Origin: Patescibacteria group bacterium
Lineage (GTDB): Bacteria > Patescibacteriota > Microgenomatia > Levybacterales > UBA12049
Reading direction: 5' to 3'
DNA length: 64,000 nucleotides
NCBI GenBank assembly: GCA_026004395.1
Contig: BPJB01000001.1
Location: forward strand, 713,226 to 777,225
This document shows, piece by piece, positions 38,881 through 43,821 of the stretch. Below the pieces are notes generated by a model. It ran no database searches. It had not been told where the DNA came from and worked only from the letters and a program-made list of their open reading frames with translations. The translations under genes and the position numbers were made by a program. How positions within the stretch are numbered: the stretch's first letter is position 1; each line of letters opens with the position of its first letter.

Positions 38881-39351
38881 TTATTCAACAATCAATTTCC
38901 CCACCATTCCCATTTGTCTATGATTGCCAATCGAGCAATAATACTCAAACTCACCCTTTTTAGCGGCAACAAACTCAATTGTATCCTCTTGTCCAGCTGA
39001 AAGCTGCTTTGTGCGAACATTGTAGTCATCTAGTACAAAGTCATGAAAGCCTTCAGCTATTTTTAGCGTAACTTTTACAGTATCGCCTTGTCTTACTCGT
39101 ATCTCTTTGACATCATATCTAAAATTTGAAGCTGTGAGTGTAAATTCTTTTGTTGATACCTCTTCTTTATTCGCAGAGGGTAAGGACTCCTCACTTGTTG
39201 GATTGATAGACGTTGGTGTAGGTGTGGTAATAGCTTGCTGATTTTTAGATCCACTATTCGGAGTGTTAGTTGCATTATTAGTAAGCAACAAGAATAAACT
39301 ACTTAAAAAAACGATAACTATCAATATGATGATAATCGATTTAATGTTCAT
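38881..39351 (-). CDS. Membrane-anchored type-1 copper cupredoxin (second copy)
   Basis: Strong SD (aaggaggtgtaATG). TM anchor IIIILIVIVFLSSLFLLL, a Thr/Pro-rich linker, and a cupredoxin with the ligands H...C-x-x-x-x-H-x-x-M (FHDF...YYCSIGNHRQMGM). Confidence 0.65.
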   Translation of the reverse strand: MNIKSIIIILIVIVFLSSLFLLLTNNATNTPNSGSKNQQAITTPTPTSINPTSEESLPSANKEEVSTKEFTLTASNFRYDVKEIRVRQGDTVKVTLKIAEGFHDFVLDDYNVRTKQLSAGQEDTIEFVAAKKGEFEYYCSIGNHRQMGMVGKLIVE

Positions 39352-39432
39352 TATTACACCTCCTTTCTTAAGAGTTCAGTTTAAACAAACTCTACAAAAA
39401 AACAAGTACTTATCTAAAGATAAAACAAATAG

Positions 39433-39912
39433 ATGTATAATTCAAATACGCAAATGAAGTCATATAATCTACAAATTCCCTTTGTCACAACATCATCAGA
39501 CAAAATTAAAACTCTTATTCAACTTTCTGAATGCAAAAGAGAAGGAAAGGTAGTAGATCTAGGATCAGGTGACGGACGTGTCGTAATAGCTCTAGCCAGA
39601 GCAGGCTTTGATGTTGTTGGATTTGAAATCAGAAAAGAGCTTGTTGAGAGATCTCTGCAGAAAATAGCAGCATTAGGTTTAGATCAAAAAATTACCATTT
39701 ATCACCAAAACTTTTGGGATGCCAATCTATCAGAGTTTGATCTGATTTATATTTATGGAATGCAGTCAATGCTTGCCAAGCTTGAAGAGAAGCTTGAGAC
39801 AGAGATGAAAGTAGGCGCAAAATTCATCTCGAATATCTTTCCTCTTCCGCGTTGGAAACCTCAAAAAGTAAAAGACAATTTTTACGTTTATACTAAAAAA
39901 AATAAGATCTAG
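39433..39912 (+). CDS. Small class I SAM-dependent methyltransferase
   Basis: Motif I VVDLGSGDGRVVIALARAGFDVVGFE. Confidence 0.6.
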   Translation: MYNSNTQMKSYNLQIPFVTTSSDKIKTLIQLSECKREGKVVDLGSGDGRVVIALARAGFDVVGFEIRKELVERSLQKIAALGLDQKITIYHQNFWDANLSEFDLIYIYGMQSMLAKLEEKLETEMKVGAKFISNIFPLPRWKPQKVKDNFYVYTKKNKI

Positions 39913-39953
39913 TGAATAATGTAGTGTCAAAACTTCTTTTTAGAAAAAATCAA

Positions 39954-40133
39954 CTATACTTCCTGTATCTGCGCAAAAGTAATTTGTTGTTTGAGTTTCT
40001 GAACAACATTTCTTACGGACTTTCGCGTAGCAAAAGACTCAGCGCTATTGGCAATTACTTTATTCTGGATATTTCTCAGTTGCCATTTATATTTGCCATC
40101 CATGCTTTGATAAATAAGAATGAAAAGTTCCAT
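39954..40133 (-). CDS. DUF1508/YegP-like small protein (59 aa), not in the supplied ORF track
   Basis: Minus-strand translation is MELFILIYQSMDGKYKWQLRNIQNKVIANSAESFATRKSVRNVVQKLKQQITFAQIQEV. It fits the YegP repeat consensus F-x-[LI]-[YF]-x-x-x-[DN]-G-x-[YW]-[RK]-[FW]-x-L-[KR]-[AN]-x-N-x-x-[VI]-I-A-x-S-x-x-Y. An SD-like ggtgaggaag lies 8 nt upstream of the ATG. The overlapping plus-strand ORF 39912-40139 is the alternative reading. Confidence 0.4.
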   Translation of the reverse strand: MELFILIYQSMDGKYKWQLRNIQNKVIANSAESFATRKSVRNVVQKLKQQITFAQIQEV

Positions 40134-40139
40134 TTTTGA

Positions 40140-40420
40140 ACTTCCTCACCAAGATGGATCATGAGATCTCTAAATTTTCTATTTATTTACTATTTATTTA
40201 TATTTTCTCGACATGGCAGGGAAGAATGCCTTTTATCCTATTCCTGCCCTAGCACTACCCTGCCATGTCAAGATCCGATAGAATCATGGATCTATCGGAT
40301 GAGTTTTAATTCCAAAGCCAACGGGTATGGCTTCTATCCTCTGTCGTACAGAAGATACCATGGTATTTCTTACCAGTTTTTGTCGTGCCGCGTTTCTCAA
40401 CCGCTGGCTGACCACAAATA
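40140..40420. other. GC-rich, highly structured non-coding segment with multiple perfect inverted repeats, possibly a structured RNA/leader or a mobile-element remnant
   Basis: A 12-bp perfect stem gacatggcaggg/ccctgccatgtc spans 40210-40269. Nested and competing hairpins follow: agatcc...ggatct and atccgatag...ctatcggat between 40271 and 40300. A 12-bp palindrome ataccatggtat sits at 40345-40356. The segment lies between the SSAP gene and the DUF1508 gene on the same strand and stands out from the AT-rich genome. Confidence 0.4.
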
Positions 40421-40837
40421 TCACATACCAGTGTAGTGGACTATTTTTTTCTCTGATGCTGCTACTGGCAATCTTTCTTGCGTATTGCCAGGCTGAGGAA
40501 CTTTCACTGACAAGGACCTAGTCATTTCATCTGCTGAAGCAACACTCTCGATGAGACCATATCCTGCAAACCCAAGCGCTCTCCCAACAGCCGATGTCTC
40601 AGCTACTTCGTAAGGATTTTCCTTCTCAATTGTTCTAGCGTTCTCTGGATTAACAGAGCTGATCCCTGTGTAGAGCTTACCTTTTATGTATACCCTAGCT
40701 CGAATTACAATTGGATTGTGAGAGAGAATCTCTGTCTCAATACCCTCAAGAGCTTTTTCCTCATGAGCTAGTTCTATCCGTCGTGCTACTGTCATGTATT
40801 CTTTGCCGTGAATTGTAACGATACCACTATTGCTCAT
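40421..40837 (-). CDS. Rad52/Sak-family single-strand annealing protein (compact, 138 aa)
   Basis: Strong SD (ggaggaggtgaaatATG). The stretch ...GISSVNPENARTIEKENPYEVAETSAVGRALGFAGYGL... parallels the human RAD52 core ...[39 protein letters not shown]..., sharing the pattern G-x-G...A-x-T-x-A-x-x-R-A-L-x-x-F-G. N-terminal beta-strand region HGKEYMTVARRIEL. Confidence 0.5.
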   Translation of the reverse strand: MSNSGIVTIHGKEYMTVARRIELAHEEKALEGIETEILSHNPIVIRARVYIKGKLYTGISSVNPENARTIEKENPYEVAETSAVGRALGFAGYGLIESVASADEMTRSLSVKVPQPGNTQERLPVAASEKKIVHYTGM

Positions 40838-41189
40838 ATTTCACCTCCTCCACGTTCTATGAACCTTCAAACAACGTATAGTTTCTCGACTCAACTGAGT
40901 CATTAGAATTATTATTAGATTAGAGAAAAATCCATTTTTTGAATCTAAAGATATTCTTGATTTCTTTTTCTGGGAAAATAAGCAGTATTATCGTGGATTG
41001 GGAGTTATCTTATCGCAGGAATTCTCAGCGTCTCTCCTCCAACCACTCTTATTCTCCCTCCTGCGAACTTTACTGTACGTTCGTTCAAATAATGTATAAG
41101 GATACTACCACTCTTTGACGATTTTTTCAAGCAGAGCAATACTGTAAATAAAAATCTATTTTTAGAGGTACACACGAAGCTCAAAAGAT

Positions 41190-41852
41190 CTATTTTAGGC
41201 GATATTGCGATGATGCTTGCTGAAGAAGAGTTAGGATCTCCTCATCCGTCACTGGTTTTCTTTCTTCATACCAGAGTACTGGTGTATGAAACTCTTCTGG
41301 CTCCACAAGGCAGATAATCTCATCAGCTATTCCCTCAAGATGAGTAGATACATCTCTGTCGCATGCAGGAATAGCAAGTATGACAGCAAGAGGATCAAAT
41401 GATTCTATAGCCTTAGCGGCAACAGTAGGAACAACAGGAGAGGTTAAAACATCATCTACAAGAATTACTGTCTTACCCCGTAAATTCTGAAGAGGCTGTC
41501 CTCCTCGTAGCTTTTGCAGGTTGCGATCAATCTCATGCTGTGCTTTTGCGACTAAGTTAGTCAACTCTTCATCACTGATATTGAAAAGTCGAATGATATG
41601 TTCTTGAAGAAAAAGATTATTATCCTCAGCAACAGCACCTAGAGGTATCGCTGTTTTTCCAGGCAGAAGAATCTTTTCTGTTAGCAAAAACTGAAAAGGA
41701 ACTTTAAGAACTTTAGAAACCTCATAGGCTACAGGTATTCCTTCTTTGGAGATAGCAACAATGACTTTCTCTCCCTCTATTTCTTTCTGTTTTAGCGTCT
41801 CTCCCAACTGTTTTCCTGCATCATACCTATCTTTAAAAATAGTCATAGACAT
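41190..41852 (-). CDS. COG1926-type predicted phosphoribosyltransferase-like protein with a degenerate PRPP loop
   Basis: FKDRYDAGKQLGETL..., then LRGKTVILVDDVLTSPVVPTVAAKAI...LAVILAIPA...CLVEPEEFHTPVLWYEE follows the COG1926 layout. The usual D-D-G-x-A-T-G-x-T Gly-rich loop is replaced by DDVLTSPVVPT. Confidence 0.55.
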   Translation of the reverse strand: MSMTIFKDRYDAGKQLGETLKQKEIEGEKVIVAISKEGIPVAYEVSKVLKVPFQFLLTEKILLPGKTAIPLGAVAEDNNLFLQEHIIRLFNISDEELTNLVAKAQHEIDRNLQKLRGGQPLQNLRGKTVILVDDVLTSPVVPTVAAKAIESFDPLAVILAIPACDRDVSTHLEGIADEIICLVEPEEFHTPVLWYEERKPVTDEEILTLLQQASSQYRLK

Positions 41853-41958
41853 ATCATTCTCTTAAATTTTAATAAGGAAATGAGAAATCAGTAATAATTA
41901 AGAAAAACTAGAAGCATACTATGCTTAAAGAATGATTAAAGAATTATTAAATGTAATC

Positions 41959-43821
41959 TCATGATTCCTTAAATAGTGGAAGTGTAAAATAAAATGTAGT
42001 TCCTTTCCCTACCTCAGACGTTGCCCATATTTTGCCTTTGTGTTTTCTTATTATCTCCCGACAAATATAAAGCCCAAGTCCAAAACCATTTCTATTGTCT
42101 CTAGAAGGTGCAACCTGGTAAAATCTATCAAAGATACGATTTAGCTCATTTCTTGGAATACCTCTTCCCTGATCTGTTACTGACACTAAAATATCCTTCT
42201 TCCTGTTGTAGGCTTCAATTGTTATTGATGTTTTGTCATTAGAATACTTAATAGCGTTGGTAAGAAGATTGGTAACTACCTGTTCTATCCTACGGCTGTC
42301 TGCCAATGCGTATACTTCTTTCTCTTTTTTAAAGAGAATTTTTCTCTTGCCTGCCAAGAACTGCACTTTAGCAATCGTTTCATTGATAAGTTGATTTAGA
42401 TCTACTTTTTCAAGGTGTAGATAAAATCTCCCTATATTAATTCTTGCAATATCCAACATCTCATCAATTAGTTCTACCAATCTGTTGACCTCTTTATCCA
42501 CAAGATCTAACTCTGTCAAAGATAACTTTAATTTTTGAGCTCGCTTCAGAGCAGACTGTATGAGTAGTTTAATTGTTGTAATTGGTGTTTTAAGTTCATG
42601 ACTTGCTAGAGAGAAAAACGCATCTTTCTGTACATCAATAAACTTTTTCTCTGTAATATCCTCACCCATGCAGAGTATTCCAACTGGTTTGCCACCGCTA
42701 TCATGAAAAATTACATTTGTCCAGTGTATCAATCGTTCTTGACCAAATTTAGTCAGTATAGCTCCTTCAGTTGAAAATGAAATTTTCTTCTCACTTAATT
42801 CCAATAATTTTTTAATTTTTTGTCTTTGCCTTTGTGGTACAAACTGAAAAAAAGACTTGCCTACTATCTCTTCTTCTGTAAATCCAGTTAAAGAATAGTA
42901 GTAAGGGTTGGCATATGTAACTGTACCATGCATATCAACAATCAGAGAGATAAGTGATATATTTTGCAGCATTTCCTGCATCCTCTTCTCATTCTCTTGT
43001 ACAGCAATTTCCATCCTTCTTCTTTGAGTAATATCATGAGTAATCTTTACAAAACGAACTATTCGCCCTTCTTTATTTTTAACAGCAGTAATAGTTCCAT
43101 GTACCCAGATAAACGATCCATCTTTTTTTACATGCCATCCTTCATACTCGGCTTTTCCTTCTTCTATTGCTTGCTGCAAGAGAGCTTGAGGTATTTTTTT
43201 CTCCTGCTCTTCTCTAGGGTAAAATTTACAACAATCACTACCTATTACATCTTTTCTTGTATACCCATATACGCTCTCAGCCCCCTTGTTCCAACTGATA
43301 ATCTTTCCTTTTTTGTTCATTACGTAGATTGCAAAACCGTGAGAATTATCCACCATTTCCTGAAATAATCTTTCCTTCTCTTGCAATTTCTTCTGTAGTT
43401 TAATAGTAGATGAAATATCATAATACATCTGAACTAAATAATAGGGTCTCCCTGCTTTTTTAATCGGGGAAAAAAGCGTGTGAACATTATATTTTTCTTG
43501 TTTCTTTGTTAAGAGAGTAATTTTATCAGTAGAATATGCCTTGCCTGACTCAATAGACGCCAAAATCTTTTTATAGAGAACAGAGGATATTCCTAACTGC
43601 TGTAAAATACTTCGGAGATTTTTTCCTTGTATATCTATCAAACGATAACCGGTATATCTCTCCCAAGCTGGATTAGCATATATAATCCTACCATCTAAAT
43701 AAGCAATTAGCAAAGGATGAGGAAAATCATCTATTAACTGAGGAAAGTGAAATACTCTCCTTTTTTGAGGCTTAAGGGTATGGGATAAAAATCTATAAAT
43801 CCATGATCCATTTTGCCTCAT
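41959..43821 (-). CDS. Sensor histidine kinase with three PAS domains, HisKA and HATPase_c
   Basis: PAS-like blocks (YANPAWERYTGY, SWNKGAESVYGY, YANPYYYSLTGF), H-box SHELKTPITTI, and N/G boxes (LLTNAIKYS, DQGRGIPRNELNRIFDRFYQV, GFGLGLYICREII). Confidence 0.85.
   Translation of the reverse strand: MRQNGSWIYRFLSHTLKPQKRRVFHFPQLIDDFPHPLLIAYLDGRIIYANPAWERYTGYRLIDIQGKNLRSILQQLGISSVLYKKILASIESGKAYSTDKITLLTKKQEKYNVHTLFSPIKKAGRPYYLVQMYYDISSTIKLQKKLQEKERLFQEMVDNSHGFAIYVMNKKGKIISWNKGAESVYGYTRKDVIGSDCCKFYPREEQEKKIPQALLQQAIEEGKAEYEGWHVKKDGSFIWVHGTITAVKNKEGRIVRFVKITHDITQRRRMEIAVQENEKRMQEMLQNISLISLIVDMHGTVTYANPYYYSLTGFTEEEIVGKSFFQFVPQRQRQKIKKLLELSEKKISFSTEGAILTKFGQERLIHWTNVIFHDSGGKPVGILCMGEDITEKKFIDVQKDAFFSLASHELKTPITTIKLLIQSALKRAQKLKLSLTELDLVDKEVNRLVELIDEMLDIARINIGRFYLHLEKVDLNQLINETIAKVQFLAGKRKILFKKEKEVYALADSRRIEQVVTNLLTNAIKYSNDKTSITIEAYNRKKDILVSVTDQGRGIPRNELNRIFDRFYQVAPSRDNRNGFGLGLYICREIIRKHKGKIWATSEVGKGTTFYFTLPLFKES

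Follow-up and report, generated by a model that had tools for sequence, protein, structure and literature searches.

A frameshifted member of a widespread Patescibacteria gene family with a predicted Rad52-type fold, followed by a conserved two-hairpin RNA element

The window (the whole 64-kb stretch of DNA that was analysed, from the Patescibacteria MAG KatS3mg089) carries on its minus strand, between positions 39954 and 41140, what on balance appears to be a single conserved chromosomal expression unit and not an inserted islet. Two genes belong to it. The first, KatS3mg089_0748 (40421..40837, minus strand), is a 138-aa ORF that encodes an SSAP-like N-domain (residues ~1-100) and part of a variable linker, and ends prematurely at a TGA. 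The second, KatS3mg089_0747 (39954..40133, minus strand), is a 59-aa single-domain DUF1508/YegP-like gene located in the position of Pif1 in relatives. Both ORFs were described in a first-pass annotation of the sequence, which considered that the shorter one had been missed by the ORF track, while GenBank annotates it as a gene. The description given there is partly supported by our analysis; its phage-remnant reading is not.

The 138-aa ORF had been taken for a compact protein, and for an isolated, miniaturised copy. It is instead the 5' part of a 160-180-aa gene, the length of its homologues (175-176 aa for the other members of its 90% cluster), and the gene is a frameshifted one within a family that numbers over 1,200 proteins and has a zinc-ribbon tail. 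The +1 frame runs on as ...STTLVCDICGQPAVEKRGTTKTGKKYHGIFCTTEDRSHTRWLWN* and ends at 40306-40308, and frame translation of this out-of-frame remainder (40306..40425, minus strand) gives the C-terminal zinc ribbon, LVCDICG...YHGIFC...SHTRWLWN, with the original stop codon at 40306-40308. Since this frame still encodes the ribbon to 40306, the ~115 bp at 40306-40420 are displaced coding sequence, although they had been counted in a ~280-bp hairpin element; the true spacer is 40134-40305. In the CxxC…C…H ribbon, C137 is invariant in the family, and C140, C162 and H169 are found in at least 90% of sequences; family homologues combine this conserved Cys/His tail with an invariant ...AETSAVGRALGFAG.G... 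helix. When single-base deletions and two-base insertions were enumerated, the frameshift, a net +1 nt, was placed at 40421..40443 (minus strand): the loss of almost any single base there, and nowhere else, restores a 176-aa ORF, and the first Cys is also kept only with deletions at 40426-40443. Aligned with the intact gene of loci L001 and L002, the linker differs in length by 4 nt. Lying in the linker, this net +1 indel leaves the N-domain (138 aa) as the whole of the annotated product and puts the zinc ribbon out of frame.

An assembly or consensus error could explain the frameshift, in which case the genome would encode an intact 176-aa protein, a possibility that we take seriously without favouring it. 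The zinc-ribbon codons, though out of frame, are under strong purifying selection (38 of 41 residues identical to P0001, three conservative changes in 41 codons, dN/dS 0.069; the 138-aa ORF has a dN/dS of 0.015 against L001), and the full length of the rest of the 90% cluster also points this way. The MAG goes back to PacBio HiFi reads of the Katase hot-spring metagenome, which were put together by metaFlye, and short-read polishing is not described (PMC9671151), which again would leave room for an error. However, a length change in the only long homopolymer, an A7 run (40444-40450) adjacent to the frameshift interval, does not restore the ORF since it puts a TAG in frame, and an error in this run was therefore rejected as not enough to repair the gene. 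Within 40421-40443, where a deletion restores the ORF, runs are at most two bases long, and the linker is naturally indel-prone. HiFi errors outside long homopolymers are atypical; one at another place in 40421-40443 is possible. Programmed frameshifting was also rejected, because the +1 shift would be needed after an AUA, past a +1-frame UAG, where a 0-frame stop and a slippery site are both absent; were the shift made only at the later UGA, the first Cys of CxxC would be lost. In practice, KatS3mg089_0748 should be annotated as a frameshifted gene, not as a mini-protein.

Judged by sequence matches, the gene probably belongs to family PF27148 (Slr1353_N) and to phrog_11717, both of unassigned function. 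The phrog_11717 family matches all 60 diverse members searched, and precomputed PF27148 matches are carried by many homologues of 61-87% identity and called 'weak' where a strength is given. For slr1353 itself, the only literature mention found is an antisense RNA listed in PMC3516471. Clustered at 90%, the family comprises 1,204 members, and at 50% it has 4,816 representatives. The first-pass annotation had proposed a Rad52/Sak-like SSAP, and the sequence tests do not support it: the 138-aa ORF has no Pfam match at E<=1, PF04098 (Rad52_Rad22) included, nor has any of the 60 diverse members; NCBIfam and PDB sequence searches with the single protein and two family profiles yielded no informative match; and HHalign of the family alignment against a 30-sequence RAD52 alignment gave a probability of 1% (E 0.057, 15 columns), with no similarity to human RAD52 alone. 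In the PHROG search, a Sak-like PHROG was touched by 2 of the 60 members (best 1.5e-4) and a RecT-like one by a single member; the window protein matches phrog_8492 (Sak-like) weakly (E 0.099) and PF06378 not at all.

Support for this proposal comes from the fold. An AlphaFold model, with an overall pLDDT of 84 that exceeds 90 through most of residues 11-95, has the topology β-β-α-β-β-β-α-α and thus contains the β-β-β-α core of the Rad52 superfamily after a β-hairpin and a helix; the zinc ribbon is modelled with a pLDDT of 84-95. The intact protein would consist of a ~100-aa N-domain with the α-β-β-β-α core of the Rad52/Sak/Mgm101 SSAP superfamily, a disordered linker and the C-terminal CxxC…C…H zinc ribbon. 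In Foldseek searches of the PDB, Sak was matched with a probability of 1.0 over 120 columns and RecT with 0.98 over 126 columns. The structural neighbours of the N-domain are Sak, Sak3, RecT, Redβ, Mgm101 and RAD52; the scores of dsRBD and uS5 folds equal that of RAD52. Against BFVD, all functionally named viral neighbours in the top 33 are SSAPs or SSAP-partner nucleases (Sak3, RecT, Rad52/59/22, an Exo VIII-domain protein), several models named 'SAK3' being matched with E values from 2e-3 to 3e-2; Bet and Erf come lower down, a DRBM-domain protein ranks 34 and an RNase III ranks 43.

The phage gene context also supports the SSAP assignment. One phage homologue is annotated 'mgM101-like'. In phage MW202512, the homologue lies directly upstream of a YqaJ exonuclease (PF09588, 1.5e-16), with an SSB two genes further on; in phage LL-Ku it is found in the early region with a weak PD-(D/E)XK nuclease match, an SSB and a Holliday-junction resolvase, and in phage phiT1 beside a replication protein and a helicase. 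This association with exonuclease and SSB is restricted to phage members, while the window and the cellular relatives contain Pif1 or DUF1508 and no exonuclease.

Another reading is that the N-domain is a dsRBD-like RNA-binding protein that does not anneal DNA and binds structured RNA, possibly its own leader and 3' hairpins, the link to Pif1 then reflecting RNA/DNA-hybrid or RNA metabolism. We consider it unlikely. The dsRBD matches span ~60-85 columns against 120-126 for Sak and RecT, dsRBD-type proteins number only two among the viral neighbours mentioned above, where the named ones are otherwise SSAPs, and the phage members fill the SSAP slot beside YqaJ exonuclease and SSB. SCOP places the Rad52 core and the dsRBD in the same fold class, so cross-matches between them are expected. 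The gene is a widespread, uncharacterised chromosomal Patescibacteria gene with a predicted Rad52-type annealing fold and a zinc ribbon. It shares with the Rad52-superfamily SSAPs (RAD52, Mgm101, Sak, Sak3/DUF1071) the core made of a β-hairpin, a helix, a three-stranded sheet and a long helix, and its conserved basic, Gly-rich helix ...ETSAVGRALGFAGYG resembles the ...KRAL..FG..LG helix of Rad52/Sak; its structural neighbours are drawn from all SSAP groups, the others being RecT/Redβ and Erf. In contrast, no profile-level sequence similarity to Rad52-superfamily SSAPs was found and its domain is shorter (~100 aa). The cellular form also differs from known SSAPs in being chromosomal and conserved across Patescibacteria, with a C-terminal zinc ribbon and a Pif1 partner instead of an exonuclease.

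Rad52-type SSAPs count as proteins of phages or of eukaryotes and their organelles, and finding one in a bacterium is normally taken as a sign of a prophage. The locus had accordingly been viewed as a GC-rich inserted islet in which an isolated, miniaturised, phage- or ICE-derived Rad52-like gene would be a mobile-element remnant or a minimal recombineering module. Family members are indeed encoded by phages (19 phage records, in addition to the phrog_11717 matches), and the gene-Pif1 pair is found between different flanking genes in different lineages. The 884-bp stretch has a GC content of 0.408, whereas the mean of the window is 0.347 (sd 0.033); it falls in the top 4% of equal-sized segments (3.6% are equal or higher), which is a small shift for a stretch described as conspicuously GC-rich. 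The excess is confined to the conserved gene (0.44), where most of it originates, and the RNA element, whereas the DUF1508 gene and the leader stand at 0.35. Moreover, loci L001 and L002 (94% protein identity) show the same gene order, PAS kinase, PRTase, gene, MTase(-), cupredoxin, peptidase S15 and VTT, the MTase-cupredoxin neighbours are shared by more distant loci as well, and housekeeping genes flank the family gene in other loci. No integrase, tRNA edge, repeats or phage genes were found near the locus, and the small size of the ORF is due to the frameshift. The mobile-remnant reading is thus largely refuted, and we judge it very unlikely. A defence-system reading found no support: when searched with PADLOC for known anti-phage defence systems, P0001 and the DUF1508 protein have no match, and the matches of the Pif1 proteins are limited to the generic SF1B helicase portions of larger proteins.

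In about 10 of 18 species loci, as well as in the L169, L170, L176, P0039 and P0006 loci, the family gene is immediately followed by a Pif1 gene of the same orientation. The order gene-PIF1-MTase(-) at P0006 and L169 is that of the window, with Pif1 in the place of DUF1508, a replacement seen only in the window lineage among the loci examined. The downstream gene of the unit differs between lineages, being a Pif1-family SF1B helicase in most relatives and the 59-aa DUF1508 gene here. As Pif1 is absent from the locus and the annealing gene is frameshifted, the module may be decaying in the window lineage. The 59-aa product matches PF07411 at 44 of its 48 positions (45 residues, E 5.5e-4), with a score just below the cut-off (20.2 against 22 bits). 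NF041908 is matched over 49 residues with 30.1 bits for a cut-off of 90, and phrog_1422 is matched too. P0392, 92% identical to the 59-aa product, is annotated YegP and carries PF07411.18, and the gene is kept in a relative with a dN/dS of 0.157. Compared with the small proteins DUF1508/YegP (UPF0339) and HVO_2922, the product is single-domain and under both curated cut-offs.

The unit would be headed by a conserved sigma-70-type promoter with an operator-like palindrome, a ~260-nt leader and a very strong Shine-Dalgarno sequence. A consensus scan places the promoter at 41102..41130 (minus strand), with a -35 box TTGAAA, a 17-nt spacer and a TG-extended -10 box TAGTAT. It is preceded by a conserved TGCTCTGC, and an arrangement TGCTSTGCTTGMA...TAnnAT is found upstream of the gene in most family loci. 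Just 3' of the -10 box lies the near-palindrome GAACGAACGTAC (41075..41086, minus strand), which reads GTACGAACGTAC in relatives. Loci L012, L014, L170, L171, L172 and L176 each contain one exact copy at the same position, and identity to L001 is 97% across the bin 41070-41099, in which the near-palindrome lies. Both versions resemble the LexA (Cheo-type) SOS box GAAC-N4-GTTC; a search of the window for an SOS regulon gave this single match of the near-palindrome.

The 5' leader (40838..41095, minus strand, ~258 nt) has a conserved 5' module at 41010-41069, 100% identical to L001, followed by a poorly conserved part (~40860-40980; 20-57% identity at 40890-40979). The module contains an inverted repeat, UCGCAGGA...UCCUGCGA, with arms at 41059-41066 and 41013-41020 around GGUUGG, and a stem of 5-10 bp with a constant span of 49-61 nt is present in 12 loci. 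RNAalifold gives seven pairs for this stem, two compensatory and five invariant, so that it is conserved mostly in sequence and an RNA structure there is putative. MAFFT alignment of whole leaders was too poor for a full leader structure. The leader model R2 has one match per locus, always upstream of the gene. With Rfam 15, positions 39000-42000 of the window gave only chance-level matches (PyrG leader, E 0.14; mir-449, E 0.95), and the leaders and 3' regions of L003, L004, L014, L169 and L170 gave none; neither the leader nor the 3' element matches a described RNA family. The Shine-Dalgarno sequence GGAGGAGGTGA (40841..40851, minus strand), read from the sequence, corresponds to an AGGAGGTGA conserved across family loci. 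It had been called unusually strong, and it is so for this genome, since GGAGG occurs within 20 nt of the first ATG in only 3 of 52 long window ORFs. Together, leader and palindrome would give regulated, possibly damage-responsive or autogenous, expression.

The stacked hairpins reported downstream of the ORF are real. A perfect 12-bp stem, GACATGGCAGGG/CCCTGCCATGTC (40210-40221 and 40258-40269), sits within an inverted repeat with 19-nt arms, a separate perfect 10-bp stem is formed by 40273-40282 and 40291-40300, and the sense-strand fold of 40134-40310 has a z score of -5.0. In terms of the transcript, hairpin 1 (40274..40299, minus strand) is a 9-10-bp stem a few bases past the original stop codon, with three of six pairs compensatory, and hairpin 2 (40206..40273, minus strand) is a ~20-bp stem whose loop carries GGGCAGGAA and AAAAGGCA, with 10 of 20 pairs compensatory. 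An A-rich tail without a U-tract follows hairpin 2, the sense strand reading GAGAAAAUAUAAAUAAAU. Few close relatives were found in metagenome and genome scans, so the alignment of this RNA stayed at nine lineages. Over its 26 pairs, 94.9% of cells are paired and 13 pairs are compensatory, none of 500 shuffles being as good, while slid controls are ~40% paired. The model R1 covers 40198-40307 at 92 bits, detects the element in the non-training loci L172, L173 and L174, and has one copy per locus. A dispersed repeat or MITE origin of the hairpin was rejected, given this single copy per locus and a 12-mer that occurs in the window only in this hairpin. The alignment contains 18 G:U cells against three A:C cells, which favours the sense strand and makes an antisense RNA or a DNA cruciform disfavoured as sole explanation.

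The hairpins could be a mere terminator or an mRNA-stabilising stem-loop, conserved through short divergence within one clade, a reading that is less likely but plausible. Like intercistronic or 3'-end stem-loops and intrinsic terminators, they form a stable hairpin pair straight past the stop codon; R1 matches are limited to nine lineages of one subclade; and L007, L017 and L022 have canonical stem-plus-U-tract terminators in the same position, the L007 loop sharing AAAAGGCAG. Unlike terminators, the element lacks a U-tract on the sense strand. No rho-independent terminator was found on the minus strand in 39850-41250, where the sole terminator-like site is on the plus strand (40273-40300 plus GAGTTTTAAT). 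Only 3-40 nt separate the element from the Pif1 start in an apparent operon, and it is kept upstream of whichever gene comes next. Finally, the loop motifs (RGGCAG) and the basal stem (GACAYG/CAUGUC) are conserved beyond the need for base pairing, and a 73-nt block is without substitution against L001, where dS is ~0.5. The suggestion of an RNA-regulated locus is the part of the first-pass annotation that survived best: a conserved, covarying 3' RNA structure and a conserved upstream leader are present, and we infer a regulatory role from them. As a sense-strand RNA structure ending the first cistron, the element would stabilise or partly terminate the transcript and in this way set the ratio of annealing protein to downstream product; in addition, its RGGCAG loop repeats could serve as a platform for binding.

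The intact protein, abundant and probably oligomeric, would bind ssDNA and anneal complementary strands, and it would work with the helicase in RecA-independent repair, replication restart or the handling of incoming ssDNA. Yeast Mgm101 and Pif1 work together in mtDNA maintenance. Both systems would pair a Rad52-fold annealing protein with a Pif1-family SF1B helicase, whose genes are adjacent here, a likeness that we use as an analogy only and that does not extend to shared descent or physical interaction. A bolder proposal, which we make tentatively and hold to be doubtful as a whole, is that Levyibacteria/Microgenomates-type Patescibacteria possess a core, non-phage, RecA-independent recombination module, made of the zinc-ribbon Rad52-fold annealing protein and Pif1, as a counterpart of mitochondrial Mgm101/Pif1 and controlled by two new RNA motifs, the structured leader and the GGCAG-loop two-hairpin element. 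The dsRBD-like annealing protein might bind these motifs, or the motifs might pair with each other (leader CUGCCC with loop GGGCAG).

To our knowledge, very few cis-regulatory RNAs are known in the phylum Patescibacteria, and the leader and the 3' element, neither of them in Rfam, are concrete candidates for new ones. The protein family, with thousands of members, has a predicted Rad52-type fold with no detectable Rad52 sequence link and resides in an ordinary chromosomal context of ultra-small Patescibacteria genomes. If the protein anneals DNA, these reduced genomes would keep a dedicated recombination or repair route that is now annotated 'hypothetical'; this could bear on their handling of taken-up DNA and on damage repair, and, as a small tool for recombineering, the protein could be worth a trial.

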